A DNA stretch of 64,000 nucleotides from Octopus sinensis (GCF_006345805.1 NC_043000.1:40858001-40922000), one strand, 5' to 3'. Shown: positions 8,139 to 64,000, numbered from the stretch's first letter. Numbers and translations are program-made. The notes: a model not told the origin generated them from the sequence alone.

Positions 8139-8176
<38 letters not shown>

Positions 8177-8503
8177 ATATATAAATAATATATATATATG
8201 TGCATGTATATATATATATATATATATAATATAAATAATATATATATGTGTGCATGATATATATATATATATAATATATATAATATATATATATATATGT
8301 GTGCATGTATATATATATATATATATATATAAATAATATATATATATGTGTGCATGTATATATATATATATATATATAATATAAATAATATATATATATG
8401 TGTGCATGTATATTATATATATATATAATATAAATAATATATATATATGTGTGCATGTATATATATATATATAATATAAATAATATATATATATGTGTGC
8501 ATG

Positions 8504-8534
<31 letters not shown>

Positions 8535-8825
8535 AATAATATATGTATGTGCATGTATATATATATATATATATAATATAAATAATATATGTATGTGCAT
8601 GTATATATATATATAATATATATATAATATAAATAATATATGTATGTGCATGTATATATATATATATAATATAAATAATATATATATGTGCATGTATATA
8701 TATATATATAATATAAATAATATATATATGTGCATATATATATATATATATATAAATAATATATATGTGCATGTATATATATATATATATGTGCATGTAT
8801 ATATATATATATATATATATTGTGC

Positions 8826-8864
<39 letters not shown>

Positions 8865-8917
8865 CATGTATATATATATATCTATATATATATAATATAT
8901 ATATATATATGTGCATG

Positions 8918-8955
<38 letters not shown>

Positions 8956-9002
8956 GTGCATGTATATATATATAATATATATATATATATACATATATAT
9001 AT
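8041..9002. repeat. TA-rich minisatellite, unit about 35-50 bp
   Basis: Recurrent ATATAATATAAATAATATATATATGTGCATGTATAT units. A similar array lies at 39480-39910. Confidence 0.9.
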
Positions 9003-9171
9003 GGAATCAGGACGTCACCAACTGTATTTCTATGAAGTTCATTAAATATCATTTTTTCTGTTTCAGATAGTACCTACCATGGCCTGGAATGGGAGGGCAT
9101 CGTTTTTTCTTGTAACTTTATGTGTTTGTTTTTATTAACCTTGAAATGAGAACAACCTTTCTGCCGCACCC

Positions 9172-9234
<63 letters not shown>

Positions 9235-10048
9235 ATATAGATGTAAAAAGGTTGACTTTAGATTCGTTCTTTAATTTGGAGGTTTCCAAAATGATTTCTA
9301 ATATTGCTTCTGGTAGTTTACAGGCGTATATTTGCGAAAATGAGAATAACACTAGTATATGATGTGTTGTGAATTTAAGGAAAGAAATCCCATACAACTC
9401 AACAGTTTAGTTAAAAATGGAGAGGAGAAGATGTTAAAATATATAAGAGAATTTTAATTTATGCAGACGATCGTTTCGTACAGAGATATAAAAATCAGGC
9501 AAATTCATGGTTGAATTGAATTAAATAAAATTAATTGGATTAATTATATATCAATGTACTCTTCAGTGCAAGAAGTATAAACCAAGGTTTTTACAAAGAA
9601 CTTGAGAAAGGAAATAGCAGAATAGAAATTAGGAGATTCATATTTATCCTAATGAGAACAAGAAATGTGAATCCAGTTAGGTATTAAATATAACTAAAGG
9701 CTATAACGGTTATTTGAAAATATAAGTCAATATATAGATGAATTATAATGTAGGAATTAAATTTCTAATCTCCTTACTCATCTATAGAGGGAACGTTTCT
9801 GAAACCTCTTTTACTTATATTTTCAAATATATATATATATAGGAAAAATGTTATTGTCCCTAATAATGACTGAGTGTGCAGTGTAGCACTTACATTGCTA
9901 GAAATAAGTGTCAAACACACTTATAGCCATAAAAAGTACATTGTCTATGTACTGGAAGGTGGAGATAACCGCCCCACACTGAGCGTGGTCACTATATTAT
10001 ACTATACTATACAATCTATCTATCTGCTTGTATGCATGTGAGTAATTT

Positions 10049-24504: not shown

Positions 24505-26200
24505 TTCTTTATTTGTCATACAGGCCATGAAACAGAGGGGGATGGCACAAGGACAGACAGAACACCACAATGGGAATAAAAATCATGAAATGAATGAATG
24601 AGAGATGTATAATAATTAAATGAGGATGTAATGGCTGCTTGAACCCCGCTCTCAAGCAGTACCATTTAACTGTTTTAATACAGTTTTTATATAATATTTT
24701 TCTCTTCTTTCATTTTTGTATCGTATGTGTAGTCTTTAAAATTTTAAAAGCTTACTCACGCTCTACCATTTTATATATGACAAGCCGTCGTAACCTATAA
24801 CTGGCGGTAGGTCGTCAAACTCTATTCTCATCCAATTGAATCTACTTTGTTTCCAAACCATTTCTTCAATTTCTCATATCTCTCTTTGTCTATTACTATG
24901 GCTGTTGTACTTTCTGGGTAATGTTCCCTTGGTAATTTAACTCTTATCACCGATTTAAATTTGGCGATTTCCCCTTCTATATCTGTGTTTTTTTGTATAT
25001 GTTACTATACGCCATTTGTTTTTTTCCTGGTCTTTGACTGTTCGTTCCTGCGATGGAATTGGGTTGTCTGTGATGGTTTCCTTTACTTTTTCCTTCGTTG
25101 TTGATGCTGGTGGAGGTTCATGTAGTGGAAAATGTGTGCAGTCTATTTCCCTCTACTTTTTTTTCTTTATTGGACTCTTCGGAGGTGAGTTCACTGGTTT
25201 ATTTCTCTTTTTCTTTTTGGTTACCTCCGTAAATGGTTCTCCCGCTTCTTCCGTGCATTTTTCATTTTCTAGGTCCGCTACTTCGGCTTTCTGCTCCTGT
25301 TGGCATTCATCGTTTTTATTTTCTCTCTTTGGACACTTTACTCTAATATGTCCCTTTTTCACCGCATTGATAGCAAGTTGGTGGCCTTCCTTCTACCACC
25401 ACTCTCAACCTTATATCCTCTGGTAGTCTTATTTCTTAAGCAATTTCATTTAGATCTTGTCCGATCTGGATGACCATTTCTAGTCCGTATCCCCAGTGAA
25501 TTACCTTCTTTGTCCTTATCACCTTTAGAATTTTGCCGTCTTCTTCAGTTTTGGGCATTGCGGCTGCCACCAGCCACGCTTCTTTCTGGTGGTAATCTGA
25601 TTTCTGGTGGTACTCTGCATATTCTCATTCTGGCGACCCTTTTGCCGCAGTAGGTAGGCAGGAGTACCCATTTTTCTGTCTTTAGCGTCACAGTGGAATG
25701 ATATATTGCCTCCTGTTCGTTGGCAAATAACACCTCCACTGTACCGTATTTTCTGCCTTTTGTAAAGAATGTTGTCAGGTGCTTTATTTCCTTTAGACAT
25801 TCTTCAATTGCTTCTTCCGTAGCTATCTCTATTTTCTTTGTGGTTGTAGACAGTGTTCTGTACACCACTATTCTTTTCTTGGTACTTGTTATTACTTCTT
25901 CTGGAGGGTGTCAGTTTTAAACTGGATTCTTCCTTCTGAATCAGCCTGTAGTATCCCTTTTGCTTCCTTTGTTCAATTTTAATTTCTCGCACTTCTAGCG
26001 ACTTTGCACATTTCCCAGCTACTGAAGCATAATTCCCGGCATGTGCTGGTTCACACTCCATTTCATTTTCTTTTTTGATTTACTTCGCCCCAAAATGGGA
26101 AAGAAGGCAAACACAAAATTTAACAAAAATGGTATTTAACAGATTCAACAAAACCTAACAAAGTATAACATGACTTACGTCAACCAGAATCAAAAATGAT
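24505..26200 (-). mobile_element. ORF1-only L1/Tx1-like retroelement, copy 1 (frameshifted)
   Basis: KGRKYGTVEVLFANEQEAI...LLPTYCGKRV; CCHC knuckle CYQCGEKGHIRVKC; SINE-like 3' tail; no EN or RT. Confidence 0.7.
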
Positions 26201-26229
26201 CTAACACTAACAAAAGTGCCTCGCTGACT

Positions 26230-27700
26230 ACTTTTCTTTATTTGGCACCCAGGCCATTAACACAGAGGGGACAAAACAAGTACAGACAGAACACTACAGA
26301 GGGGACAAAAGACATAAAACGAATGAAAAATGAAAAAATGTATAATGAAATCGATGGCGATGAAATGGCTGCATGCGCCCAACTCACATGCAATACCATT
26401 TGAACGTTCTTTCTTTCAGTTTGTAATCTTATTCTTTTCCCCTGTTTTTTCACTATTAGCATAATTTGTTTTCTCTTGTTTTAAAAAACAACAATTTTAC
26501 GTTCTTTTTCTTAAATATCTTATATATGGTTCTAGTTCACTTAATTCTACTACTGGCGGCAGTTCGTGGAACTCCACCACAAATCCCGGCTGCACAATTT
26601 GACACTTTTCCTTCAACTTGTTATATATTTCTTTATCGATTAAAATAGCTTTTACATTTTCACCGTACATGTCCTTGGGCATCTTAACCCCTATAACAGA
26701 TTTAAGCTTGGTTATCACTTTTCGGTATTTATGCTTTTAGCATATGTCACGAAATTCCAGCTATGTTTTCTCAGCCTTCTTACTTGTTTGCCATGTTTCA
26801 CACTTGGCGCGACCGCCGCCATCCTGGTTAGTATCATTGTTTCTTCTCGTTGCTGTTCTAAAAAATTCTCTAGTATGCTTGATTCTATCTCCTCCTCCAC
26901 CATAACCTCTTTCTCAACCTCCTTTTCTACCTCTTTCTCGACCTACTTTTCAACCTCCTTTACGACTTCCTTCTCCACTCCTTTATCTGCTTCTGTTTTA
27001 TTTTTCTATCCCTCCGGTGGAGAGCCTACTCTTCCTTTTCTCTTTCGTTTTTAATCACTTCACTTTCCTCCTCTATTCCTCATGACTCCTTTTCATCTTC
27101 TTGCACCACATCGTTCACCCTCTTCTGCTCCTCAGACTGTTCCATCTGTTGTTCCTTATATTCTCTCTGGGGGCATCTCGCCTTCATGTGGCCTTTCTCG
27201 CCACACAGGTAGTGTATGGGAGGCCTACCCTCCACTACCACTCTCAATCTCATATCTACGGGTAGGATAATTTCTTCCGGAATTTTATTCATGTCACTCA
27301 CACTTGCCTGTATTGCCATCTCGATTCCGTATCCCCAATAGTTCATTATTTTCGTTCTTGTTACTCTCAGGATTTTCGCTTAATCCACCTTATTGTACAT
27401 GACTGCGGCAACCAACCATATTACATTCAACTTCGGTGGCACTTTTCCCACTCTCACTCTGACAACTCGCTTGCCACAGTATGTCGGTAGGAGCACCCAC
27501 TCTTCTGTCTTTATGGTATCGGTGGAGTGCTTTATCGCTTCTTCTTCGCTTGCGAATTGCACCTCCACTGTACCATATTTTCTTCCTCTTGTTATAAACG
27601 TGGTGACCTTTTTGACCTCTTTTAAACACTTCTCAATCTCTTCTATAATAGCTATTTCGATTTTCCGTGTCGATACCTTCAGTACAGTTCTATATTTAAA
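26230..27700 (-). mobile_element. ORF1-only L1/Tx1-like retroelement, copy 2 (frameshifted)
   Basis: VEVQFASEEEAI...LLPTYCGKRV; RVVVEGRPPIHYLCGEKGHMKARC; same C-terminal domain and tail as copy 1. Confidence 0.7.
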
Positions 27701-30090: not shown

Positions 30091-32288
30091 TGTGTGTGTG
30101 TGTGTGTGTGTCTGTGTCTGTGTGTCTGAGTGTGTATGTGTGTGTGTAGGAAGTGAAGGATAAAAATATGGATAAAAGGCAGTATACATATACGAACACA
30201 TTTGCAAACACACACCAACAATTCAATTTTATTTCCGTACAGACAACATAACACTATCAACCTCATACCACCACAACAACATTTTTCTTTATCCTGTCAA
30301 AAACTGATTGATTCTATCCCTTTCACCTACGACCTCAGCTACGTCAGCCGAAAGTAAAATCAACAGAGGATCACCTATATACCTACAAACGCTGCTGACG
30401 TATGTCTATTTTTATAGCTGCAACCACATTATATATACCGTACTTAACACACACCATGATACACCACAAATGTACCCTGAACGAGATGGACTATTCATTA
30501 TAATACATCAGTTCCACACATTTACCCTGGTTACATTTCGGACAACTGCACAAACATTTGCCATTTGACACATGTATGTAAACAAATTCCTTTCTTAAAA
30601 ATTTCAATTCATTTTCTTTTTCAATTTACGTTTCTATACACTTTACACAAATATTTGATTAAACAACTGAAACACTTCACATTTGGAACATGTACGTAAA
30701 CTACTTCCATTCTTACAAATCTAACTTTATTTTCCTGCTTTTAACTCAAGTTTCAATACACTTTACACTCTGTCGCTATACTTGCATAAACAATTTCTTT
30801 CAGCTGCAAATATTTCTTTCTTTTCCTTCCACGGTCAACATTTTTCCACATTTCATTCACATTACGATTTCTATCTTTAAGTAACTTTCACCCTTTCTTT
30901 TTCACATAAAATGCCACCGAAAAAGACAAGTCGCCTCGGCCGCCATACTGCAGCAGCGGCGGCGCAAAAGACGATTATCGCAAACGAGTCCTCCGACAAA
31001 AAGGCTTTCAGTCTTTCACAGAGCGCCTTACGTTCAGCGGAATCACGAGCTGCTGAAAATTTACAACAGCGCAACGCACGCCTAGCAAAAATGGCTTCAT
31101 ACGATGCTGCTTCCAGGGTTTCAGAGGGTCCGGAAACAAGGTCGAATCGCATGGCCATAAAGGCTGCTGCTGTTGTTGCTGCACAAAAGGCTTCAGAGGA
31201 CCCACAACAAAGGGCCACTCGACTGGCTACAAACGCTGCGGCTACTGCTGCTTCAGCATTTTCGGAACATTTAGAACTACCGACCACTCACCTTCATACG
31301 AACGAGGCGCATTGCACTGCTTCCATGCCTTCTCAAGATGCAGACGGCCGGTCCATTACCATTGCAAACTTCGCTTCTGCTACTCATGCGACACATTCCC
31401 ACGACTCAGACCAGCAACGTTCTTCATTCCAGCGGAACAGTCGACGGCGCGAGGCTACCCGCGGTCTGACGAGTCCAAACAGCCCTTACTGGCATCTACG
31501 GGCTTTCAAGTATGAGCCCAACTTCAATTACTCGATGCACGCTGACATAAATATTGGGGAAATGTGCTTTAATTGCCAATTCTGCAATGCTAAAAAGTGG
31601 GCTGGGGAACCACCTGCAATGTGCTGCTTAAACGGTAAGGTCAGCTTGCCCCCTCTTCGGGAGCTGCCAGACCCTTTGAAGGAATTACTTACTGGTTCTA
31701 CCTCAAGGTCATCGAAACTCCTTCAACTCATTAGGAAGTACACTTGTGCATTTCAGATGACTTCTTTCGGGGCTAACGTTGTCAGAGAAACTGGTTGGAT
31801 GCCTAATTTCAAGGTCCAGGGCCAGGTGTACCACCTTATTGGGTCACTCCAGCCACTACAAAATTGCAAACCTTCGTTCCTTCAAATTTATTTCATTTCA
31901 AATTACAATAGGCAACTTGATGTGCGTTTCGGCGTAATTTCACAACCTGCAAATACTGACGCTGGCAATTTCGACAGGGATGTGCTGCTCAGTCTGCAAA
32001 ACATGCTTCATGAGCACAACAGCTACATTCGCAGTTTCAAATACGCCTTGGAAACAGCCCCTTCACCAACATTCACCATTGTCATCGATGCTGACAAAAG
32101 ACCTTCTGGGGAGCACGCACGCCGATATAACGCTCCTTCGTGCAATGAAGTGGCCATAGTTCTCCATGGTGAACAGCACAATAAGCGATACATAGTTCTT
32201 CAAAGCCGCGAATCATCATAATTCAGTTCAATCATTAACAGTACTTTCAAGCAATTCAGGCCCGAGCAACGCCGGGCAATTCTGCTAG
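29265..32288 (+). mobile_element. Helitron deletion derivative
   Basis: A|TCTCTTATGATAAAAGGCAG 5' end; 3' hairpin GCCCG..CCGGGC followed by CTAG|T. Confidence 0.88.
30911..32221 (+). CDS. Helitron RepHel N-terminal region (STPR-like repeats plus Cys-rich Zn-finger-like domain), ending before Rep/helicase
   Basis: 436-aa ATG ORF with CQFCNAKKW..EPPAMCCLNGKV, IRKYTCAFQMTSFG, FKVQGQVYHLIGSL and RRYNAPSCNEVAIV. Confidence 0.85.
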   Translation: MPPKKTSRLGRHTAAAAAQKTIIANESSDKKAFSLSQSALRSAESRAAENLQQRNARLAKMASYDAASRVSEGPETRSNRMAIKAAAVVAAQKASEDPQQRATRLATNAAATAASAFSEHLELPTTHLHTNEAHCTASMPSQDADGRSITIANFASATHATHSHDSDQQRSSFQRNSRRREATRGLTSPNSPYWHLRAFKYEPNFNYSMHADINIGEMCFNCQFCNAKKWAGEPPAMCCLNGKVSLPPLRELPDPLKELLTGSTSRSSKLLQLIRKYTCAFQMTSFGANVVRETGWMPNFKVQGQVYHLIGSLQPLQNCKPSFLQIYFISNYNRQLDVRFGVISQPANTDAGNFDRDVLLSLQNMLHEHNSYIRSFKYALETAPSPTFTIVIDADKRPSGEHARRYNAPSCNEVAIVLHGEQHNKRYIVLQSRESS

Positions 32289-32329: not shown

Positions 32330-32383
32330 CCAAGAAATCCCTGCCTGAACTATGAGAGCACGTGTTTCTCCTTGGGTATCTAT
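32330..32383 (-). CDS. Small exon, 54 nt, phase 1-1: RYPRRNTCSHSSGRDFL
   Basis: cttctatttctag|ATAGATAC...TTCTTGG|gtaagt. Confidence 0.65.
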
Positions 32384-34343: not shown

Positions 34344-34457
34344 TTCCATTTCTGGCATCATATCCATAACCACCATACTGAGGACGTACTAAGTGACCAC
34401 CTCGATATTGATGAGTGTCGTGAACATTATGGGCCATGGAATGACCTTCGTCGTGAT
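34344..34457 (-). CDS. Exon, 114 nt, phase 1-1: (D)HDEGHSMAHNVHDTHQYRGGHLVRPQYGGYGYDARNG
   Basis: tttacattttttcag|ATCAC...AATGGAA|gtaagt. His/Gly/Tyr-rich open frame that overlaps track ORF 34225..34437. Confidence 0.82.
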
Positions 34458-48508: not shown

Positions 48509-48574
48509 CTTCAGATGAGCCATCATCTCTATTATTAAGCATGTGCATATTCCTATGAGGATTTTCAGAGGACT
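48509..48574 (-). CDS. Small exon, 66 nt, phase 1-1: (E)SSENPHRNMHMLNNRDDGSSE
   Basis: ttttacattttactcag|AGTCC...TCATCTGAAG|gtaatgattgttaaatctcg. Exon 3' end and donor flank are homologous to the 45-nt exons. Confidence 0.78.
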
Positions 48575-48703
48575 CTGAGTAAAATGTAAAAACATATTTG
48601 GCTGTATGTTGAACAAAACTCCATTAAGATATATATATATATGTGTGTGCGCGTGTGTGTGTGTTTGCGTGAGTGCATGTACATGTATATATATATACGT
48701 ATG

Positions 48704-48737
<34 letters not shown>

Positions 48738-48799
48738 CTTACACACACACACACATGTATATATATACATTATTATATATATATATTATACATACATTA

Positions 48800-50132
48800 T
48801 TTGTTTCGGCTGATATACCCTCAAGCCTTCATCAGGTTTCTTGGGCAAATTTCGAACCTGGGATATTTTTCGTTGTTGTGTTGTTGTTGTTATTATTATT
48901 ATTATTCAGGTCACTACCTGGGGTAGTAGCCTGCGCTCTTGACCACTACGCCATATACCCGTGGGCAATTATGGAGTGAACTTTAGGGCTTATAAATCTA
49001 ACATTTTCCTATCCTTCCTTAATACCGGTTCCCTTATGCTATTCATATCTGCACTCGGTCTGCTTAGGAGGTTGTGTCCTAGCATATGTCCTGTTTTTTA
49101 GTTTTCATATTTTCTAGTGGTGTTCTCTGTCTATCATTTTAATTTCATACCACAGGGGAAGGTGGTCTCCATTTTTTCATACATGACCAGCTATACCCAA
49201 TTTATCAATATCTCCTCGTGTCACTGCTTTAAGATGTTCCTCTACCCTTTTTTTGAGAGGGCGGCATGTTCCACCTTTGTATAACCTACAACAGCTTCAT
49301 GGGATGGAACACACGCACTTTCTGGTCATGTTCTCTTTTATTGGTGCTTTTACTCGAAGGAGATATTTGCGAAGTGTTGTAATACTCTTGAATTCTGTCC
49401 TGATGTCATATGGGCCGCATATCTTTTGTATCTTTTCGGAGAGGCTTTTCACATAGGGTAGACACACTGGATAGTTTATTGGTTTCATCCTCTCTTTTCT
49501 TCATAATTTGAGTGGATAGTATGTTTTTGGAGTAATTGTTGCTGAATAAATTGTTACTGAGCTTCATCATTTCTTCGTAGTGGGTATCACGATCGCTACT
49601 TATATTATTTGCTCGATATTTTAGCTACTGAGCAATCCCTCACTATACACTGTATGGATGGTGAGAATAGAATTTGAGGTATCGTCCAATGAAGGTCGGC
49701 TTGCGATATACGGATGTCTTGAATCTCCTTCGAATAAAACCACCAATAGAAGAGAATATAACCAAAAAATGCGTGTACTCCACCCCATGTAGCTTTGGTA
49801 GGTAATACAAAGGTGAAACATGCCGCGCCCTCAATATAAGGGTAGAGGAACATCGCAATGTTATGACACAAGGAGATATTGATTAATGGAGTATAGCTGC
49901 TCATATATAGAAAAATGGAGACCAACTCCCTCTGTAGGATGAAGTTAAAATAAGAGACAAAGAACACCACTGGAAAATACGAAAATTAAAGGAAGCAGCA
50001 CATATGCTAGGACACAACAACCTTCTAAGCCCTAAAATTCACTCCCTAAATGCCCACGGGCATATGGCGTAGTGGTTAAGGGCCCAGCCTACTAAACCCA
50101 AGATTCTAAGTTGGATTCCAGGTAGTGACCTC

Positions 50133-50177
<45 letters not shown>

Positions 50178-50340
50178 ACAATAAGCAACAACATCAAAAA
50201 ATACGTTAGGAATGAGAACCTAGGTTCGAAATTTCCCCAAGACACCCGATGAAGGTGGAGGGTATATCAGCCGAAATGTTGTGTTAACAATAAACAAGTG
50301 GACAAATATCCGTAAAATGTAAATAATGTAAATAATGTAT
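48800..50340. mobile_element. Penelope-like element: minus-strand body plus an inverted plus-strand copy of its 3' end
   Basis: VYRKPTFIGRYLKFYSHHP and VCLPYVKSLSEKI...CVCSIP motifs. 48800-49330 is inverted relative to 49740-50280. Confidence 0.85.
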
Positions 50341-51250
50341 ATAATTCCTCATCTCTAAAATATAGAACTGTATATATATATATCTGCCAGTGCTTACATT
50401 TGTAAGATCGCTCTATAAGTGTGTTAACATGGTGATTCTTAGAGAAGAGAATTTGGAAGAGTACAGAGTTGCAAATGTTATAAAATACTTTGCCCTTGTC
50501 TTAAGGGAAAGAGATGATCTAATCTCAATTAAAATCCTTATTGTTGTCAAGATACCAAACCAATATAATATAATAGATCGCGCCTTTCTCAGCCACGTGA
50601 TCCCAATCGCCTTCCTGAAATCGTTACGAGTTACGATATCAGTTACACACACACTCATATAAATATAAATATATATATATATATGTATATATATGTATAT
50701 ATATATAAGGAGGAGGCATGGCTGTGTGATAAGAAGTGTTCCTCCCAACCACATGCTTCAGGACTCGGTCCCAATGCGTGGCAAGTTGGACATATTTTAT
50801 GTCTACTATAGCCCCAGATTCATTGACAAGATTTTGATATATGCAAAGTGAAAAGAAGGAAGCCTGACATGTATGTGTATTATTGTGTGTCTGTTTGTCC
50901 CTAACAATCGCTTGATTACCGACGTTGGTTTGCTTACTTCCATGTAACCTAGCAGTTCAGCCAACAGTTCTGATAGAATATGTGCCACACTGAAAAAAAA
51001 CAGTCGGTTCGATTCACTCCACTAAAATTTACCAAAGCAGTGTCCCATCTTGGCCACATAGGCTAATGAGTGAAACAAGTAAAATATAATATATATATAT
51101 ATTATATATATACATTATATATATATCATATATTATTTATATATATGTAATATATATATATATATATATGTAATATATATATATATGTAATATATATATA
51201 TATATATATATACATTATATATATATCTTATATTATATATATATATGTAA

Positions 51251-51350
51251 NNNNNNNNNNNNNNNNNNNNNNNNNNNNNNNNNNNNNNNNNNNNNNNNNN
51301 NNNNNNNNNNNNNNNNNNNNNNNNNNNNNNNNNNNNNNNNNNNNNNNNNN
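51251..51350. other. Assembly gap (100 N)
   Basis: Run of n. Confidence 1.
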
Positions 51351-51469
51351 CTTCCTAACAAAAAATAAAGCTTGTCAAAATATATTAATGGAGCAAAATG
51401 AGGTGTCAATCTTTTACCATATACATTACTACAATTTCATGGTTGACGACCTAATATATAATATATATA

Positions 51470-51530
<61 letters not shown>

Positions 51531-51714
51531 ATATTAGGTCGTCAAGTATGAAATTTGTAGTAATGTATATGGTAAAAGTTTTACAGCTGAAATCAGAAGT
51601 AACTCTAATTTCTTAAACCACTGATCTAACAATGCATGCCTGGTCGACTGGGCAAGTCTCTGGGTCTCTATAGATGAATTTGGAGTAGGTGCCTTATGTG
51701 ACCTGTCTTTGATA

Positions 51715-51800
<86 letters not shown>

Positions 51801-52462
51801 AAGGCTGTTGGGGTTTAGTGAGCCATTCACTCTATCAATCTCCGACTCTGCTTGGATTTATTGGTGCAGTAAACAAGCGGATCATACCCTTCAACATTAA
51901 ATCTGCAGAGAAGTCTATTATGTGTTCTCGGCTAAAGTGGACCGGTTGTTCACTGCTACTCGGATGCTACTCAGAGCAAGTGGTTCCTGTGTTAAAACGA
52001 AGGAAACGCCTTAAGTGCATTCAAACGCCACTGACGATTCATCCCAGGGCATCATTATGTTGTACCTTAGAACTAAAATTCTGGGTTAATCTTTGGCGGC
52101 AGCGAAAGAATCAGATAATTTGGTAACTACTAGAATGCCGTCCGAGAGCACTCAGAGAAAGTTAACTGGGCAACACAACCCGTAAAGACATTCTTTGCTA
52201 AGATTAAACCACGTGAAGGACACTCCAGGAGAGAGGGAGGAGAAAATGACAATCCTCAACAGGTTGCATTTACTTATTTCTCACCGAACAGTCGTGAAAA
52301 GGACGATGAATATATAACGTAAATATCTGGAAAATATACCGTATATAAATCTTACGTTGCTCTGTCAATTCTGTCAGGTCGCGAGCCTTTTCTAGCTATA
52401 TAATACAATACATCAGATGCCAGCATATCAAGAAAATAATGTTGAGACGTAACAATAATTAC

Positions 52463-52507
52463 CTTCAGATGAGTCACCATAACTACTAAAATCATGTCCG
52501 TGGGATT
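52463..52507 (-). CDS. Microexon, 45 nt, phase 1-1: (E)SHGHDFSSYGDSSE
   Basis: tttttttcag|AATCCCACGGACATGATTTTAGTAGTTATGGTGACTCATCTGAAG|gtaatt. Confidence 0.8.
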
Positions 52508-53166
52508 CTGAAAAAAATTGAAATATATATGATGACTGCAGACTCATTTATGGCTCAGCCTCTCTCTGCCTTTCTCACACGCTCTCACACTCTGTCTTTC
52601 TCTCATCCACATGCCCACACACATGTGTACACGAACTCACACCCACATATAATGTTTGATAAATATACAGAGGTACAAAATGAAAATGTTTATTACACCA
52701 ATTGTCATCCATACAGCTATGATCGTTTCGAAGCCTTTATCATATGAAAACTATTTTAGTGTATGATAAATAATACTTTACTTTACATGCCGGTATTAAT
52801 ACGTATAGTATAAATTATATAATTCAGTTGCAGAATTTATAAATTAATACTGGTAAAAGGACTTGTTCATCACGTCAAAGAATATTGTTACTTTCATCGA
52901 CACAATGCATATATATAAACGCAAAGTGTTAGCATGCGTAATACTGATATATGGAAGACAATAATTAATAAAATATAGAAGAAAGGTAGGACATTTAGTA
53001 TGATATTTAAAAGTAAACAGTGGATTACGATGGTGGAAGAAAAGGTACATATAGTAAGATATATATGGAACATTATATAGTTATTGTTAATTAACCTCGA
53101 AGTGAAAATGGTAGGTAAAGTAAAAACGAAGCTATAGGTAGTGTTGAAGATATTCTGTTTACGGAA

Positions 53167-53495
53167 TACACCTCCCCCTCGACTTACGACCTGTGTAACT
53201 TACGAACATCAGCACTTACGATTACACAAATCAATCAATAAATAAATAATCGACTTTCAGATGTTGGGCAGCTGCGCGTTACAATAACTATGACAGCATC
53301 TGGCAACGCAGGCCTCCAGCAGACTCAGACTCAGACATTCACTGCCTGCCACCGTCTCTCACTCACTCACTGACAGGCATCAGTTGTGTTTGAGTGAAAA
53401 TAGTGTTGAAAAATATAAATACGACATACGACCAGATCGAATTACGACCTATCAGTCGGAACGGAGCTCGTTTGTAAGTCGAATAGAAGGTGTAA
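53167..53495. mobile_element. TA-flanked MITE, duplicated at about 63017-63318
   Basis: tacacctcc..tcgacttacga ... gtaagtcgaatagaaggtgta. Confidence 0.65.
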
Positions 53496-53912
53496 ATTGA
53501 TGAATAAGAACAATACAAGGAATAAATTGAAAGTATAAGGAAATAAAAGTAAAAAAATAGGATGAAATAAAGGAAGACAGGGCATGAACAATATTGATAT
53601 TGTAAATGGAAGACATTGAAATATATGTCAAACTAATAAAATAAACAATACCCCGACTCCTTCCTCATAGTTTATATACTCCTAATGAAATAATCATAAT
53701 CAAGTGGATCTATTGGATTTCAACTGTATCTGACTATATATTACATTCCTTTTTCTGTTTTGGTTTACTGTGTGGATTGTAGTCTCATCTCTTATAAGAG
53801 TTTTTGTTGTGAGTACCTCTGGATTAGTTACATCCATATATTGTCCATTAAATTTACAATAAAAATATACTTATGCATATAAATATACATACATACATAC
53901 ATATATGTATAA

Positions 53913-54007
<95 letters not shown>

Positions 54008-54284
54008 AGGCGCAATGGCTTAGTGGTTAGGGCAGCAGACTCGCGGTCGTAGGATCGCGGTTTCGGTTCCCAGACCGGGCGTTGTGAGTGTTTATTGAGC
54101 GAAAACACCTAAAAGCTCCACGAGGCTCCGGCACGGGGTGGTGATCCCTGCTGTACTCTTTCACTCTTTCTCCCACTCTTTCTTCCGTTAGCCTGCTCGC
54201 TTAGCGTCATTCGAAGGCTAAAACAATGCGAACGCATAGTGACCAGCGATGTGTAACTACATCTGATGGACTGGTCGGTCACGT

Positions 54285-54315
<31 letters not shown>

Positions 54316-54366
54316 ATCGTCACGTGACCGACCAGTCCATCAGATGTAGTTACACATCGCTGGTCA

Positions 54367-54437
<71 letters not shown>

Positions 54438-54688
54438 TTATTTATATATTTATTTATATTAAGGGCTTTACTATACATAAATGCTTCACACGCATATATA
54501 TCGTAGCGTGAAGCATTTATGTATAGTAAAGCCCTTAATATAAATAAATATATTTAAAGGGGATAACCAATAATTTTTCCCTCATGAGGTTTTTCACGCT
54601 GACTACTTCATAAATTCTTAAAAAAGATTTTATCCTATTTTAAAATTATATATATATATATATTATATATATATACACACACACGCAC

Positions 54689-54737
<49 letters not shown>

Positions 54738-54867
54738 TACAATGAACAAACGAAATAAATATTGTTTTCCCATGCGCTAACGTTTCTGCCTGTTCGCAAC
54801 CTTTATATAATAGAATACATTAGATGCCAGTAAGGTAGGGAAAAAGTCGAGATGTAACAATAATTAC

Positions 54868-54906
54868 CGCCAGATGATTTTTCATAATCATTATGGCTAT
54901 GTTCTT
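54868..54906 (-). CDS. Microexon, 39 nt, phase 1-1: (E)EHSHNDYEKSSG
   Basis: ttttacattttttcag|AAGAACATAGCCATAATGATTATGAAAAATCATCTGGCG|gtaatt. Confidence 0.78.
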
Positions 54907-54964
54907 CTGAAAAAATGTAAAAATATATGTAGCTATATGATGACTGTAGACTCATTTACAACTT

Positions 54965-56052
54965 AGTCACACACAGAGGAGGAAAGATTTAATGCGTAGC
55001 TACGTGGAGAAAGAAGTTTAATGAAAAGCTGTAGAAGATGTGCTGTAGCAGCAAAATTTACCCGCGATATTTAATGAAACTTTGCCAAAAGTAGATGTTC
55101 CGTAGTCGAGACTACACATCGATTTCGAAGGTCCTTTGAACGGTTCATACTACATAGTGTTAGTTGATAGTTTCTCTAACAGACACAGAGAACGCTTTGG
55201 CAATAGGTTTATAAGAGACCTAAGAAGATCAAATAAGGAAGTCACAGACGAAGCAGCTCTACAAAATTCTTAAGACTATACCGTGTGACACCATCCAAAT
55301 ATATAAGCAGGTATGTCATCAGCGGAGCTGATATTTGCGAGGAAAATAAAATCATTCTTCGACAAATTGCTACAGGACAAGAAAAGAAAAATTGCAAGGG
55401 AAATGCAGCAGGATTTTTCAAAATTCAAGTAAAGTTATTTGTGAGGGCATATAAGAACAGAAAACTGAATTAGGAAGATGGCGTGATTACCAAACGCATA
55501 GGAAAAATGCTATATTTTTCCTATGTAGAAATGGTGTATACGAGAGTCACATGAACCAACTGAAAAGAGATTCGTTGAGAGTGAACTCAAGAGAATGGGA
55601 AAAAAATGGAACGGTTATATGATGTTTCAAGCACCAACAGCAGTACAGGTGATTGAACTCAGGCGAACGAGCGTAAGAATAAGAAAATGTACGGAGTTCC
55701 TGGAAGTAGATTCCGAAAAAGAAAACTAATAATGTGTTACTGAGAAAACAAAGGAACCTCAAAAGAGGGAGGTGAGTTGATATAAAAAGTATTGTTAATA
55801 AAAGAAATAAAATGACTCTCCTTGAGAAAAAATAAATACTTAAAAGGGGAGATGTTGTGGGGATAATAGTAATAATGTAAAACCCACCCACGTGACGAGT
55901 AGTATATGCTAGTCGCTATAAATAAGATGACGTCGCTCAGTATAGGAAGAGATTACGTAGTAGTCATTCTTATTTGTGTATTTACTGGTCTAAAAATTAT
56001 ACAGCTCTACCAGAGTGGGCACTAGAACAATCCGACATTAAGGATTACAACA
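54965..56052 (+). mobile_element. Ty3/gypsy integrase remnant with PPT and 3' LTR
   Basis: RLHIDFEGPLNGSYYIVLVDSFS; PPT aaaaggggaga, then LTR TGTTGT(55853)...ACAACA(56052). Confidence 0.72.
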
Positions 56053-56054
56053 GT

Positions 56055-56760
56055 CACTAAAGAACATTACATCCGAATAAAGAAAAGCTGAACCTCGGAA
56101 CTCTCAGCATTCAATAAAACAGTGGCTCACAATGTGATTGGAGTGCCAGTACTCATATGAACATTTGGGCTGTTTGATTGGACGGGTGATGAGATCCGAG
56201 CCATTGACTTGGAAACATGGAAGATACTAACCAGCACAAAATATCCAACAGCGACGTAAACCGTCCCTACATGAAGCGAAAACAAGGGGCATAGATCTAG
56301 CATCGATTCAAACTACCTTGGGATGTCGTATCATATGAATGATACGAAGGGTCGGCAAAATATTTTAAGAATAAGTGTCGAAGTGTATCTCTTAACAAAG
56401 TTTACATACATGAGGTTGATAATATCATGAGACTTAGGAAGCAGCTCCTTGAGCAGCATTCCTTGTCTGAGAACGTTAAATACATGCCCAAGATAGTCGC
56501 ATGACTCTGCCTCAACATATGATCAGATGAAAGAATGAGCATATCTGAGAAGATGATGCATAGATATGTTAGGAGAAAGCTCCAGGATGATAGTAACATT
56601 GAGTAACAAAGCAGTCTATCATGGACCAACAACCGGATTACTGAACCCCACTTGGAAGGCTATGCGTTTGCAATCCAGCAACAGGAAATATCAATGAACT
56701 ACCTGATGCACAAAATGGATAGAGAAGCAAGAAAATTGGTGTACTAAGATAGCTAACATA
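56055..56760 (+). mobile_element. R4/Dong-like LINE C-terminal remnant
   Basis: VPVL..TFGLFDWTGDEIRAIDLETWKIL and LEGYAFAIQQQEI fragments. Confidence 0.6.
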
Positions 56761-58054
56761 TCACTTAAGTTCCAATCTTGAGAAATTAGGATTCTCAAAA
56801 CGAGAAAGAAGAAAGCTGATTCGAAGATTACGGTTTGAAGCCATTGCTGGAAATGTAAAAATCTCTAATACTTTCCAGAATTTAAAACAGTTAAGTATAT
56901 ACGTGTAAGTCTAGACGTGCAACTGTATGCAAGTGAAGATATATATAATAAAAATCATACAAATCTGCACATGTACTGACTCAAAATACAGCACATATAC
57001 GTACATACATGGAAAAGTACCTTGCTGATGTTGAAATTCCAATGAAGGAGTTTGGGATCTAGGTTAGAAAGCGGCGCTTTCTCTAATGGCAAGTGATCTT
57101 GAAATGAAACTGAATAATGACATACATACATACATAAGTATATGTTGTGTGTGTGAGTGTGTGTGTATGGGTGTGTTTATGTGTGTGTATTTGTGTGTAG
57201 TACTTTACCTATATTTTTCTTTTTAGTCTCGTTATGTTGAAATCGGAAGTAACCTCGCAAAGCACTGTTCTAACAATGCATGCCTAGACGACTGGGCAAG
57301 TTTCTGGGTCTCTACAGTTACAAATTTGGAGTAGGTGCCTGATGAGATCTGCTTTTGATAATGTATCTATCTATCTATCTTTCTATAAGACTGTTGGTGT
57401 TTAGTGGGCCATTCGCTCTGCCAATCTCTGGCTCTCCTTGGATTTATTGTTGCAGTGAACAAGTCGGCCATATGTTTCACCATTAAATCTACAGAGAAGG
57501 CTACCATGTGTCATTGACTAAAGCGAACACGTGGTTCACTGCCACTGGGATGTAAGCTGTGGCTCGATGAATTCTAGATTCGTTAAGCGAGCAAGTGATT
57601 CCGATGTTAAAACGACGGAAACTCCATAAGTGCAATCAAACATCACCGACGCTGCATCCCAGACCCTCATTATGATGTACCTTAGAACTAAAATCCTGCG
57701 TTAATCTTTGACTGCGGTGAAAGAATAAGATAATCTGGTGACTACAAAAATGCCAGCTGAGAGCACTCAGAGCATGTTAACAGGGCAACGCGACCCGTAA
57801 AGCCTTCCTTTGGGGAGATTAAAACATGTGAAGGATACCCCTGGAGAGAGGGAGGAGAGAATGATAATTCCAGCAGGTCGGATTTACTTGTTTCACTCCG
57901 AGTAAACGGGAAAAGAGCGTTGAATGTAAAACGTAAGTATTTGGAAAATATACCGCATATAGAGTTTCTGGTGCTCTAACGATTTTGTCAGGTTGCGAAC
58001 CTTTTATGGCTATTAGTATAACAAGAGAAAATGGTGAGAAATAACAATAATTAC

Positions 58055-58099
58055 CCTCAGATGAGTCAGGATCACTACGAAAATCATATTGGTGGGATT
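58055..58099 (-). CDS. Microexon, 45 nt, phase 1-1: (E)SHQYDFRSDPDSSE
   Basis: tttttttcag|AATCCCACCAATATGATTTTCGTAGTGATCCTGACTCATCTGAGG|gtaatt. Confidence 0.8.
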
Positions 58100-58163
58100 C
58101 TGAAAAAAATTAAAATATATATGATGACTGCAGACTCATTTATGGCTCAATCTATCTCACACA

Positions 58164-58243
<80 letters not shown>

Positions 58244-59100
58244 CACATTCCTCCACGTTAGGTCATCAAGTATGAAAGTTGCAGAAAAGAAAACAATGTT
58301 TGCTAGCGTTTTATAAATACAAGAAATAGTTTTATTCATTTAAGTATGCAGCCGCATTGTCAATACACATTTGCCATTTCAGTAGTAGCTTGTCCAGCCC
58401 GGAACTGCAAAAGCTTCGCAATCTAGAGTCAATAAAATCGTGGAAGGCCTGTTTTGCAGCATCGTCGGAATTATATTGTTTCTTATCAAAATGTTATTCA
58501 AATTCTGGAAGAATTCTTAGTCAGTGTATATACCAACAAGTATTTCACTAGAGGGCCCTACTCAGTTATATGTTAAAGAAAAATACAAGATGGTGTTGGA
58601 CTGATAAATAGCAGAATGCATTTGACGAGTTAAAAAGCATTTTAACATCGGGCCTATCGTTAAGGCATTTTGATCCAAAGTTGGATATTGTATTGACTTC
58701 AGACGCGAGTGACTATGGCGTAGGAGATATGTGTTTTGTGCAAATATGACTATAAGAGTAAAAAGGCGTCCATGTATGACCTGGTGGCTTCTAGAATGCC
58801 AGTCGAGAGCACTCAGAGCAAGTTAACTGGGCAATGCGACCCGTAAAGCCTTTCTTTGGGGAGATCCAACAGTGTGAAGGACAGTCCTGGAGAGAGGGAA
58901 GAGAGAATGATAACCCCAGCAGTTCGGATTTACTTATTTCGCTCCGAGTAAACGGGAAAAGAGCGATAAAAGTAAAACGTAAGTATTTGGAAAATATACC
59001 GCATATAGAGTTTCTGGTGCTCTCACGATTTTGTCAGGTTGCGAACCTTTTATGGCTCTTAGTATAACAAGAGAAAATGGTGAGACATGACAATAATTAC

Positions 59101-59145
59101 CCCGAGATGGGTCATCAATACTATGTAAACCATATTCGTGGGATT
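59101..59145 (-). CDS. Microexon, 45 nt, phase 1-1: (E)SHEYGLHSIDDPSR
   Basis: Identical to the 61198 exon, with intact AG/GT sites. Confidence 0.75.
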
Positions 59146-59218
59146 CTGAAAAAAATTAAAATATATATGATGACTGCAGACTCATTTATGGCTCAATATA
59201 TCTCACTCACTCATTCAC

Positions 59219-59283
<65 letters not shown>

Positions 59284-60141
59284 ATACACATTCCTCCACT
59301 TTAGGTCATCAAGTATGAAAGTTGCAGAAAAGAAAACAATGTTGCTAGCGTTTTATAAATACAGAAATAGTTTTATTCATTTAAGTATGCAGCCGCATTG
59401 TCAATACACATTTGCCATTTCAGTAGTAGCATGTCCAGCCCGGAACTGCAAAAGCTTCGCAATCTAGAGTCAATAAAATCGTGGAAGGCCTGTTTTACAG
59501 CATCGTCGGAATTATATTGTTTCTTATCAAAATGTTATCCAAATTCTGGAAGAATTCTTAGTCAGTGTATATACCAGCAAGAATTTCACTAGAGAGCCCC
59601 ACTCAGTTATATGTTAAAGAAAAATACAAGATGGTGTTGGACTGATAAATAGCAGAATGCATTTGACGAGTTAAAAAGCATTTTAACATCGGGCCTATCG
59701 TTAAGGCATTTTGATCCAAAGTTGGATATTGTATTGACTTCAGACGCGAGTGACTATGGCGTAGGACATGTGTTTTTGCGCAAATATGAACATAAGAGTA
59801 AAAAGGCGTCCATGTATGACCTGGTGACTTCTAGAATGCCGACCGAGAGTACTCAGAGCAAGTTAACTGGGCAATGCGACCCGTAAAGCCTTTCTTTGTA
59901 GAGATCAAACAGTGTGAAGGACAGTCCTGGAGAGAGGGAAGAGAGAATGATAACCCCAGCAGTTCGGATTTACTTATTTCGCTCCGAGTAAACGGGAAAA
60001 GAGCGATAAAATGTAAAACGTAAATATTTGGAAAATATACGCGCATATAGAGTTTTTCTGGTGCTCTCACGATTTGTCAGGTTGCGAACCTTTTATGGCT
60101 ATTAGTATAACATAGAAATGGTGAGACATGACAATAATTAC

Positions 60142-60186
60142 CCCGAGATGGGTCATCAATACTATGTAAACCATATTCGTGGGATT
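60142..60186 (-). CDS. Microexon, 45 nt, phase 1-1: (E)SHEYGLHSIDDPSR
   Basis: Identical to the 61198 exon, with intact AG/GT sites. Confidence 0.75.
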
Positions 60187-60258
60187 CTGAAAAAAATAAA
60201 ATATATATGATGACTGCAGACTCATTTATGGCTCAATATATCACACTCTCACTCATTC

Positions 60259-60341
<83 letters not shown>

Positions 60342-61197
60342 ACACATTCCTCCACGTTAGGTCATCAAGTATGAAAGTTGCAGAAAAGAAAACAATGTTT
60401 GCTAGCGTTTTATAAATACAAGAAATAGTTTTATTCATTTAAGTATGCAGCCGCATTGTCAATACACATTTGCCATTTCAGTAGTAGCATGTCCAGCCCG
60501 GAACTGCAAAAGCTTCGCAATCTAGAGTCAATAAAATCGTGGAAGGCCTGTTTTACAGCATCGTCGGAATTATATTGTTTCTTATCAAAATGTTATCCAA
60601 ATTCTGGAAGAATTCTTAGTCAGTGTATATACCAGCAAGAATTTCACTAGAGAGCCCCACTCAGTTATATGTTAAAGAAAAATATAAGATGGTGTTGGAC
60701 TGATAAATAGCAGAGGGTTTTTGACGAGTTAAAAAGCATTTTAACATCGGGCCTATCGTTAAGGCATTTTGATCCAAAGTTGGATATTGTATTGACTTCA
60801 GACGCGAGTGACTATGGCGTAGGAGATGTGTTTTTGCGCAAATATGAATATAAGAGTAAAAAGGCGTCCATGTATGACCTGGTGGCTTCTAGAATGCCAG
60901 CCGAGAGTACTCAGAGCAAGTTAACTGGGCAATGCGACCCGTAAAGCCTTTCTTTGTAGAGATCAAACAGTGTGAAGGACAGTCCTGGAGAGAGGGAGGA
61001 GAGAATGATAACCCCAGCAGGTCGGATTTACTTATTTCGCTCCGAGTAAAGGGAAAAGAGCGTTGGATGTAAAACGTAAGTATTTGGAAAATATACCGCA
61101 TATAGTGTTTCTGGTGATCTAACGATTCTGTCAGGTCGCGAACCTTTTATGGCTATTAGTATAACAAGAAAAAATGTTGAGACATGACAATAATTAC

Positions 61198-61242
61198 CCC
61201 GAGATGGGTCATCAATACTATGTAAACCATATTCGTGGGATT
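61198..61242 (-). CDS. Microexon, 45 nt, phase 1-1: (E)SHEYGLHSIDDPSR
   Basis: tttttttcag|AATCCCACGAATATGGTTTACATAGTATTGATGACCCATCTCGGG|gtaatt. Confidence 0.78.
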
Positions 61243-61299
61243 CTGAAAAAAATTAAAATATATATGATGACTGCAGACTCATTTATGGCTCAATTTATC

Positions 61300-61346
<47 letters not shown>

Positions 61347-61877
61347 ATACTCATTCCCCCACGTTAGGTCATCAAGTATGAAAGTTGCAGAAAAGAAAAC
61401 AATGTTTGCTAGTGTTTTATAAATACAAGAAATAGTTTTATTCATTTAAGTATGCAGCCGCATTGTCAATACACATTTGCCATTTCAGTAGTAGCTTGTC
61501 CAGCCCGGAACTGCAAAAGCTTCGCAATCTAGAGTCAATAAAATCGTGGAAGGCCTGTTTTACAGCATCGTCGGAATTATATTGTTTCTTATCAAAATGT
61601 TATCCAAATTCTGGAAGAATGTTAGTCAGTGGGGAAAGATCAGGTGAGTATGGTGGATGATGAAGAATTTGTAACTCCAACTCCTGCAGTTTCGTCAATG
61701 TTATTTTTGCAATGTGTGGTCTGGCGTTGTCTTGCAATAAAATAGGAGCGGATCTGTCCATTAATCTAGGCTGTTATTTTGTAAGTTTCTGCATCATTTG
61801 GTCCTATTGGCTGCAGTGTACAATACATTGGATGCCAGCATATCAAGAAAATAATGTTGAAACGTAACGATAATTAC

Positions 61878-61922
61878 CCTCAGATGAGTCACCATAAATA
61901 CTAAAATCATATTTGTGGGATT
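61878..61922 (-). CDS. Microexon, 45 nt, phase 1-1: (E)SHKYDFSIYGDSSE
   Basis: tttttcag|AATCCCACAAATATGATTTTAGTATTTATGGTGACTCATCTGAGG|gtaatt. Confidence 0.8.
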
Positions 61923-62216
61923 CTGAAAAAATTGAAATATATATGATGGCTGCAGACTCATTTATGGCTGAGCCTCTCTCTACCTCTCACACACACACGC
62001 TCTTCCACTCTCTCTTTCTCTCATCCGCATGCCCACACACATGTGTACACGCATACGCACACACACCCACATATAATATATGATAAATATACAGAGGTAC
62101 AAAATGAAAATATCTTTTACACCAATTGTCATCCATACAGCTATGATCGTTTCGAAGCATTTATCACATGAAAACTATTTTAGTGTATGACAAATAATAT
62201 TTTACTTTACATGCCT

Positions 62217-63995: not shown

Positions 63996-64000
63996 CACTA
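63996..64000 (-). CDS. Microexon gene: 3' end of an exon cut by the window edge
   Basis: Minus strand ...TAGTG|gtaattattgttaaatctcgac. Same donor and downstream intron as the exon at 54868-54906. Confidence 0.65.

Follow-up and report, generated by a model that had tools for sequence, protein, structure and literature searches.

The secreted phosphoproteins of the SCPP group (caseins, statherin, histatin 1, osteopontin) carry S-x-E clusters, and phase-0 introns are given as their rule in the available passages of two accounts (PMC7807025, PMC9122587). The DSSEE of statherin and the DSHE of histatin 1 are both listed as known Fam20C sites in the accessible part of PMC10454625. In the Lottia shell matrix, 16 of 46 phosphosites fit S-x-E or related motifs, and the same source states the invertebrate conservation of Fam20C sites as unknown (PMC4094399). 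Knockdown of oyster fam20C disturbed the nacre (PMC5824888, in excerpt). Our literature search for octopus together with Fam20C returned tubeworm work only, and one for a histidine-rich phosphorylated cephalopod statolith protein returned nothing. Here we analyse a window of 64,000 nucleotides of Octopus sinensis DNA (GCF_006345805.1 NC_043000.1:40858001-40922000; positions are counted from its first letter), focusing on the interval 48509-61922, in which a sequence-only reading had described SSEE phosphorylation motifs completed across splice junctions.

Exons and reading frame of the interval

The interval holds eight minus-strand exons of 39-66 nt, all symmetric phase-1, bounded by AG/GT and a multiple of 3 in length; they are referred to below by their upper coordinate.

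61878..61922, minus strand: 45-nt phase-1 exon, ends D-S-S-E and joins to E
61198..61242, minus strand: 45-nt phase-1 exon, starts S-H-E, ends D-P-S-R; first of three identical copies
60142..60186, minus strand: 45-nt phase-1 exon, second copy, identical to exon 61242
59101..59145, minus strand: 45-nt phase-1 exon, third copy, identical to exon 61242
58055..58099, minus strand: 45-nt phase-1 exon, ends D-S-S-E
54868..54906, minus strand: 39-nt phase-1 exon, ends K-S-S-G
52463..52507, minus strand: 45-nt phase-1 exon, ends D-S-S-E
48509..48574, minus strand: 66-nt phase-1 exon, S-S-E at its start and G-S-S-E at its end; CAI9721792.1 of O. vulgaris carries it in two copies
58100..61242, minus strand: three tandem exon-plus-intron units of ~1.04 kb each, 96-97% identical, 25-37 substitutions per pair
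51251..51350, no strand: assembly gap in the intron between exons 52507 and 48574, which could conceal an exon

The four TCA-TCT-GAR-G ends reported earlier are those of exons 61922, 58099, 52507 and 48574, whose following exons start with AA, AA, AG and AT, and the resulting junctions DSSE|E, DSSE|EE, DSSE|ESSE and GSSE|D are all present in the DNA, as is KSSG|E, supplied by exon 54906. To these must be added the S-R|E joins of the three identical exons, absent from the earlier list. S-H-E, also proposed to fit S-x-E, does so in three exons of the interval and in five of the whole N-terminal block. The interval contains 15 S-x-E sites, 7 junction-made and 8 internal; in DSSE|E the first site lies within the exon and the junction is needed for the second alone. 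All these joins are inferred from DNA rather than from a view of RNA. Over 52300-62200, no exon-to-exon joint occurs among the 15 contig matches listed (there are 116 further); contigs of sets X1-X3 continue through introns and are DNA-like, and set X4, RNA only by guess, consists there of short pieces spanning exon plus intron. For the 114-nt exon 34457, a look-up with 9 sampled words listed no RNA data set, a result that weighs neither way.

Phase 0 is likewise open in all eight exons. Phase 1 is nevertheless forced, because exons 85353, 34457 and others are open in phase 1 alone and all exons are symmetric; the frame chosen in the earlier reading is supported, and it is the one used in CAI9721792.1. 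A phase-blind scan of 643 kb returned 42 strong exon candidates (39 with length divisible by 3) on the minus strand inside the gene span, as compared with 2 on its plus strand and 7 per strand outside it, an enrichment that is partly circular since 27 of this gene's own exons served to train the splice matrix. The earlier observation as such is confirmed.

Extent of the gene and character of its product

The interval is part of the N-terminal block of a ~157-kb gene whose exons, at least 45 in number, are small, symmetric and in phase 1. This block comprises 15 exons, the eight of the interval and seven toward or past the window end, for which extended coordinates (G000:C4 position minus 40,858,000) are given.

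extended 93617-93587, minus strand: probable untranslated exon upstream of the signal-peptide-like exon
extended 93317-93232 (L004:232-317), minus strand: signal-peptide-like exon by hydropathy heuristic only, ATG at 93292, phase-1 end
extended 87192-87157, 85353-85303, 72274-72233, 69719-69675, 69114-69070 and 65830-65786, minus strand: six further block exons beyond the window
63996..64000, continuing to extended 64034, minus strand: 39-nt phase-1 exon, ends K-S-S-S, last 5 bases in the window
34344..34457, minus strand: 114-nt exon rich in His, Gly and Tyr, with phase 1 as its sole open frame, gives the D of GSSE|D
32330..32383, minus strand: 54-nt candidate phase-1 exon, not in CAI9721792.1
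24228..24293, minus strand: 66-nt Tyr-rich candidate phase-1 exon, not in CAI9721792.1
19698..19727, minus strand: 30-nt phase-1 exon, in CAI9721792.1
16653..16700, minus strand: 48-nt candidate exon with weak acceptor, not in CAI9721792.1
15282..15311, minus strand: 30-nt phase-1 exon, in CAI9721792.1
12185..12217, minus strand: 33-nt phase-1 exon, in CAI9721792.1
7870..7914, minus strand: 45-nt candidate exon, not in CAI9721792.1
6353..6400, minus strand: 48-nt candidate exon, not in CAI9721792.1
2233..2274, minus strand: 42-nt candidate exon, not in CAI9721792.1
780..812, minus strand: 33-nt candidate exon, not in CAI9721792.1

Past the window start, 19 more phase-1 exons extend over ~63 kb (L010-L015), with the last exon probably at G000:C4 ~40,795,030 and a TPR gene as downstream neighbour; the last two internal exons, inferred from DNA only, carry four Cys. 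Median exon size is 42 nt (40 of 45 at ≤51 nt), and it is because of these ~42-nt exons that annotation recovers the gene only as a fragment. A scan with the matrix trained on this gene found no second array across ~250 kb on its upstream and 237 kb on its downstream side, and DNA and protein searches of the octopus's own genome match this locus alone.

The sequence-only reading had made a signal peptide its refuting test. Exon 93317, which precedes the first exon of the array by 6 kb, is a plausible carrier: it shows a Kyte-Doolittle 9-residue peak of 3.08, has CAAA before the ATG and ends in phase 1. The call is heuristic; such candidates number 7 on the minus strand of the 643 kb, and this is the sole one inside or beside the gene. 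In SCPP genes a non-coding exon precedes a single exon that encodes the signal peptide plus two residues, an arrangement that the octopus layout recalls. An earlier candidate (extended 99020-98946) was rejected, as it is phase 0 with a donor below threshold. No membrane segment was detected (best 19-residue mean 0.82), and the gene product is predicted to be a disordered, likely secreted protein of ~735 residues. The N block (226 residues; S 21%, E+D 22%, H 11%, net charge -35) contains 24 His, 17 Tyr, five S-H-E starts and three DSSEE. The array makes up just one third of this longer protein, and the remainder is Ala/Thr/Asn-rich, with 11 N-glycosylation sequons.

The orthologous locus of Octopus vulgaris is represented by a 307-residue fragment, hypothetical protein CAI9721792.1 (UniRef A0AA36F281), which 16 of the 45 called exons match at ≥80%. 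It includes the joins GSSE|ESSE and GSSE|D, and its residues 34-71 are identical to exon 34457. The fragment starts inside exon 48574, without signal peptide or 45-nt array, leaves out 11 internal candidate exons downstream of 34457, and has a different last exon. We do not accept that exon as the true gene end: its acceptor is weak and further strong phase-1 exons follow. Since it lacks a signal peptide and ends on a poor acceptor, CAI9721792.1 looks truncated. Its Atlas model has a pLDDT of 0.41, and the ESM Atlas comparison yielded no usable feature match (TM values all under 0.4).

Homologue searches (protein, full HMMER, Pfam) were limited by the low-complexity sequence. The 114-nt exon has a real match in CAI9721792.1 alone (P0002 is an unrelated low-complexity match), exon 58099 with intron flanks matched no protein, and of 1,662 candidates close to CAI9721792.1 in length none matched it except itself; Pfam, run on this part of the protein, gave no family over cut-off. 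Two short motifs of CAI9721792.1 had no match in partial supplements of three O. vulgaris proteomes, those of skin mucus, ink and the posterior salivary gland (the third mostly protein tables), a result of little weight, and no mention of either accession was found in the searchable literature.

S-x-E sites, exon junctions and duplication

A strong excess of S-x-E supports the earlier reading: the N block has 21 sites against a shuffle mean of 5.6, and 10 against 2.9 with one exon per type (1 of 20,000 shuffles that high), P values that are overstated because block exons are paralogues. The protein outside the block shows no excess (4 sites in the other 475 residues; shuffle mean 2.2). The spacing is specific, with 21 S-x-E in the N block compared with 7 S-E, 10 S-xx-E and 6 E-x-S. 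Completion across junctions holds for 11 of the 21 sites; the 10 within exons, about half, need no junction.

Junction-made S-x|E is found at 11 of 15 block junctions and 2 of 29 elsewhere. The position x varies (E, G, R or S), whereas serine is retained, as is the glutamate at the junction, the serine codon itself alternating between TCT and TCC. The last base of each of the 15 block exons is G, the base preferred by the donor consensus, which makes Glu at the join cheap (phase-1 G plus AA). The exons being paralogues, 11 of 15 counts as about one event: the junction motif goes back to a single ancestral event that was multiplied by duplication, and it is partly favoured by the splice-site consensus. 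Since most block exons end S-x-G (first base) and begin AA or AG, exon gain, loss or skipping would alter the number of sites and leave frame and motif intact; of the 120 forward joins that are possible, 70 yield S-x|E all the same.

The array grew by tandem copying of exon-plus-intron units, and its exons show no general purifying signal (overall pN 0.29, pS 0.21), their cores changing rapidly in amino-acid sequence. The junction serine changed once on a 9-copy tree, against a core mean of 2.5, a difference not significant alone (P 0.29), and exon copy 65830 lacks it. A Poisson test on codons 1, 2, 11 and 13 was set aside, as these codons were chosen after the data had been seen.

Proposed function and relation to known systems

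We consider it on balance probable that the N block of this single-copy gene encodes a secreted disordered protein that is phosphorylated at S-x-E by Golgi Fam20C and binds calcium or zinc. The exon-duplicated block would be spliced into one transcript with the downstream exons; its product, to judge from the hydropathy of the upstream exon, would be secreted; Golgi Fam20C would phosphorylate the S-x-E serines, and the phosphorylated His-rich segment, then polyanionic, may bind calcium or zinc, or mineral. The earlier identification of S-x-E with the Fam20C consensus agrees with the statherin and histatin 1 sites cited above (PMC10454625, in part) and with the genome, where PF06702 occurs at two loci. 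One (L019) encodes a putative kinase matching Fam20C best (E 2.6e-42, versus 1.6e-18 for xylosylkinase); at the other (L021) the two tie. The most likely role would be that of a Ca- or Zn-binding matrix or secretion component, as for statherin, histatin and casein.

It is possible, though we think it rather unlikely, that the gene instead encodes a variable secreted MEG or mucin-like micro-exon protein (mucus, egg coat, recognition, defence), in which S-x-E is a by-product of phase-1 splice consensus and duplication and phosphorylation is incidental. In core codons 3-10 the first and second positions have the higher rate, with 21 changes in 16 sites; the corresponding figures are 4 in 8 for third positions (P 0.046, small sample) and 15 in 29 for the upstream intron (P 0.004). 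The downstream intron, however, changes as fast as the core (74 in 66), partly through misalignment. The Ala/Thr/Asn-rich remainder with its sequons would also suit such a protein, as would the exons omitted from CAI9721792.1, although their omission may equally reflect an isoform, a species difference or an annotation gap. Splice consensus, on the other hand, demands neither the AA/AG start (13/15 block exons, 7/29 elsewhere) nor a serine two codons before the join (12/15, 2/29), and 10 of the 21 sites lie within exons.

That part of the array is unused, its recent duplicates silent or assembly-inflated and the working gene the shorter CAI9721792.1 form, appears improbable. The array's absence from that protein, the fruitless search with exon 58099, the three identical exons and a downstream duplicate pair with just 4 substitutions in ~590 bases all point this way; yet AG/GT, frame and length are intact in every one of the 15 block exons whereas their introns carry indels, the three 1.04-kb units have diverged, and CAI9721792.1 itself looks truncated. 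A precursor of histatin-like His-rich metal-binding or antimicrobial peptides, cleaved after secretion, is highly improbable, for although the His, Tyr and histatin 1-like S-H-E content would fit, as would the gene model's total of seven basic pairs or R-x-x-R sites, the repeats are strongly acidic (pI 4.8) with no basic pair between them and the N block holds only one such site.

Should the secreted phosphoprotein we favour prove phosphorylated and mineral- or metal-binding, it would represent an independent mollusc origin of the casein/statherin design in another intron phase, would put forward a definite candidate for the mineral or adhesive matrices of octopus, and would offer a clean substrate with which to test the invertebrate Fam20C reading of S-x-E; it also exemplifies a 157-kb gene that annotation captures as a fragment. 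Rather improbable is the extended proposal of a first cephalopod casein/statherin counterpart, independently evolved in a tissue that mineralises or glues, such as statolith, stylet or egg cement. The kinase site would then be built by the splice junction itself, the valency of phosphate and histidine would depend on how many exon copies there are and on regulated skipping, and cores would diversify freely. Octopus mineralised tissue is scant, namely statoliths and stylets, which speaks against the secreted phosphoprotein reading we favour.

Among lophotrochozoans, the tubeworm cement proteins Sa-3/Pc-3 (PMC12621633) and the Lottia shell-matrix phosphoproteins (PMC4094399) are, in the passages available, likewise serine-rich and secreted, with Fam20C as proposed kinase. 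No homology to either was found, and Sa-3/Pc-3 are described there as polyphosphoserine, unlike the exon-built S-x-E/His units of octopus. Schistosome MEGs resemble the octopus gene in having a signal peptide (predicted in octopus), duplicated exons and a large number of exons that are short and symmetric, and possibly in raised amino-acid change (PMC8293314, in part). The octopus exons, however, are longer and mainly exceed 36 nt (8 of 45 at ≤36 nt), outside the MEG size class; they form one 157-kb gene of a free-living mollusc rather than families, and an S-x-E array is no stated MEG feature in those passages.

Likeness to SCPPs (PMC9122587, PMC6437144, PMC10454625, as excerpted) extends to a predicted signal peptide, S-x-E clusters, exon duplication and acidic, Tyr-rich low-complexity sequence, with DSSEE and SHE as in statherin and histatin 1, and neither a Kazal nor an EF family was found by Pfam in the CAI9721792.1 part. 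Judged from its sequence, the octopus gene is nevertheless not an SCPP: its introns are phase 1 instead of phase 0, it is a single gene with no cluster found in the flanks scanned, far longer and with a neutral Ala/Thr/Asn-rich half, and protein, full HMMER and Pfam searches for SPARC-L/SPARCL1 descent detected no relative except CAI9721792.1. Of the convergent phase-1 SCPP-like gene envisaged earlier, the secretion-signal-like exon and the acidic S-x-E chain stand; any novelty of the design is weakened. ODAPH is a non-SCPP secreted Fam20C-type phosphoprotein with phase-1 introns, SSEE and a few cysteines, a combination that the predicted octopus protein repeats (PMC7807025, whose available passages do not state that SSEE spans a junction). 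It gave no match in protein searches with octopus sequences and differs in being a vertebrate protein of 130 residues with two or three exons and no repeat array, but it gives SSEE in a phase-1 gene a precedent.

The exon array and its gene

All eight exons that the sequence-only reading had placed between 48509 and 61922 lie where it put them, bounded by AG and GT and 39, 45 or 66 nt long, and their phase-1 splicing, as computed from the DNA, yields the joins it had listed, namely DSSE/E, DSSE/EE, KSSG/E, DSSE/ESSE and GSSE/D (slashes mark splice junctions). Three identical exons among the eight also make S-R/E, a join outside that list, and the 125 residues encoded in the interval include 15 S-x-E motifs, 7 made at junctions and 8 internal to exons. 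The assumed phase-1 frame holds as well: phase 0 is likewise open in all eight exons, but symmetric exons nearby, among them 85353 and 34457 (named by minus-strand start), have only phase 1 open, and phase 1 is read by P0001, an Octopus vulgaris hypothetical protein fragment (CAI9721792.1 / A0AA36F281), part of which is identical to a 114-nt exon of the octopus studied here. A 100-base assembly gap lies inside the intron preceding the 48574 exon.

Scanning the window together with its flanking sequence yielded 45 internal exons, which span 87192 to -62719 (contig position minus 40,858,000) and have a median length of 42 nt. This list was partly selected for phase 1 and length, and the fair figure is that of a phase-blind scan, whose splice matrix was trained on exons of this same gene: 42 candidates on the minus strand of the gene span, 39 of them divisible by 3, compared with 2 on the opposite strand there; the remaining 480 kb gave 7 on each strand. 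The secretion proposed earlier gains a signal-peptide-like leader, identified by a hydropathy heuristic as 18 hydrophobic residues ending T-Q-S and followed by two His.

Terminal exons of the gene model (extended coordinates)
93617-93587 (flank stretch L004), minus strand: 31-nt exon, probably untranslated
93317-93232, minus strand: signal-peptide-like exon, ATG after CAAA, phase-1 donor
-48409, -54254, -58114 and -62696, minus strand: 3' exons, four Cys in the last two
-62970, minus strand: probable last exon, AATAAA 45 nt past the stop

The placement of the 3' end is less sure. The 93617 exon ends in ATG and the 93317 exon begins with TAA; joining the two would therefore place a mini-ORF made up of a start and a stop codon some 25 nt upstream of the main ATG. 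Two more possible phase-1 exons between the leader and 87192 (91963-91940 and 91190-91158, L003) have weak donors and were left out of the model, which encodes about 735 residues without a membrane segment. The part of the protein covered by P0001 has a predicted-structure pLDDT of 0.41, and a search of the animal's own 2.72-Gb genome returned matches at this locus only. The gene is real and largely unannotated.

The same gene carries a second, unrelated family of repeat exons (-28330 to -37740, L011-L012): six phase-1 exons of 42 nt that share a D-T-x-F-x-P core. Four of these six exons are present in P0001. On the opposite strand, some 28-31 kb past the probable 3' end, plus-strand exons L018:6073-6233 and 8635-8696 match TPR_1 below cut-off (E 1e-4 and 2e-4) and belong to a gene with TPR repeats, possibly of TMTC type. 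Judged by eye, a GC-rich LINE-type retrotransposon-like insert of about 3 kb is intronic just beyond the window start (L009, about 6860-9930); decayed mariner-like and LINE-like pieces lie at 2600-6200 and 24700-27700 of the window, and a GC-richer intronic stretch at 31000-32260 gives the impression of a Helitron.

Motif excess and the kinase

The DNA holds an array of phase-1 exons, their duplication, an excess of S-x-E motifs and, elsewhere in the genome, a kinase gene. On balance we favour a secreted phosphoprotein with a calcium- or zinc-binding segment and phosphorylated S-x-E sites, a function predicted from the motifs. In the N block (15 N-terminal exons, 226 residues) there are 21 S-x-E where shuffling gives a mean of 5.6, and in the 475 residues outside it there are 4 where shuffling gives 2.2; with one exon per type the block has 10 against 2.9. 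Other N-block spacings are rarer (S-E 7, S-xx-E 10, E-x-S 6), and S-x/E is made at 11 of 15 junctions in the block and at 2 of 29 elsewhere.

Against selection on the motif stand the common ancestor of all these exons and the preference of splicing for a final G. The main alternative is a secretion of variable sequence, MEG- or mucin-like, whose S-x-E sites would be incidental; we consider it rather unlikely. Among the nine 45-nt copies, amino-acid changes codon by codon number 0,0,4,2,2,2,3,3,2,2,0,2,1,2; the S-H start, one Asp and the junction serine are stable, the x position varies and the junction Glu is constant throughout the family. Junction-serine conservation taken alone is not significant (P 0.29), one copy has lost the serine, and synonymous changes are also zero in the invariant first codons, which may reflect splicing constraint. 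Overall pN (0.29) exceeds pS (0.21), and exon cores appear to diversify, with 21 changes in 16 first and second positions and 4 in 8 third positions; introns show 15 in 29 sites upstream and 74 in 66, poorly aligned, downstream.

The Fam20C-type kinase invoked by the sequence-only reading has candidates in the genome, where two loci match the Pfam family of Fam20C, one of them nearest to Fam20C itself (L019) and the other ambiguous (L021). In the excerpted text of PMC10454625, Fam20C reads S-x-E/pS, and the sites listed include statherin DSSEE and histatin 1 DSHE. The octopus N block holds three DSSEE and five SHE. Of the 46 phosphosites in Lottia shell matrix, 16 fit S-x-E or related motifs, according to a portion of PMC4094399 whose authors call the conservation of Fam20C sites in invertebrates unknown; oyster fam20C has a role in shell formation (PMC5824888, in part). 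FAM20C candidates are also among the genes expressed in the cement cells of a tubeworm (PMC12621633, in part).

Growth by duplication and a possible mechanism

The array exons and their flanking introns are paralogous. Three 1.04-kb units share 96-97% identity (25-37 substitutions per pair), and a larger block surrounding 61922 repeats that surrounding 52507 (1,330 matches, 86 substitutions). The 66-nt exon has two copies in P0001 and one in the present assembly, so its copy number may differ between assemblies, unless the gap conceals a copy. An exon pair at -18134 to -22574 (L010-L011) occurs twice here and once in P0001; one copy pair, with 4 substitutions in about 590 bases, may be very recent or an assembly duplicate. 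That array exons are partly silent or assembly-inflated seems improbable. P0001 matches 16 of the 45 exons and lacks 11 candidates within its span.

Under the favoured phosphoprotein reading, the array would be spliced into one transcript and the protein secreted, up to about 21 serines would be phosphorylated, and a segment of phosphoserine, Asp, Glu and His would bind calcium or zinc; the half to which it is tethered is neutral and, with 11 N-glycosylation sequons, probably glycosylated. As 70 of the 120 possible forward joins in the N block keep S-x/E, the design is predicted to tolerate exon skipping. A histatin-like precursor is the reading to which we give least credence.

Comparison with known systems

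The likeness to SCPPs proposed earlier stands in part: the protein would function in the manner of an acidic SCPP, yet by comparison criteria taken from portions of PMC9122587 and PMC7807025 it is not one, being phase 1, with no SPARC-L relation found and no cluster. The phase argument is less novel given ODAPH, already described in the latter excerpt as a non-SCPP, phase-1, SSEE-bearing secreted phosphoprotein. Exon duplication enlarged the casein genes, which also give rise to splice variants (PMC6437144, in part). The plan of symmetric micro-exons is also that of schistosome MEGs, whose exons are shorter (PMC8293314, in part), and the sponge and tunicate secreted repeat proteins in the available text of PMC11703226 are unrelated to the octopus gene. 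No description of this gene was found in the open-access papers searched. Its motifs show a specific, testable convergence with those of statherin, histatin and casein.
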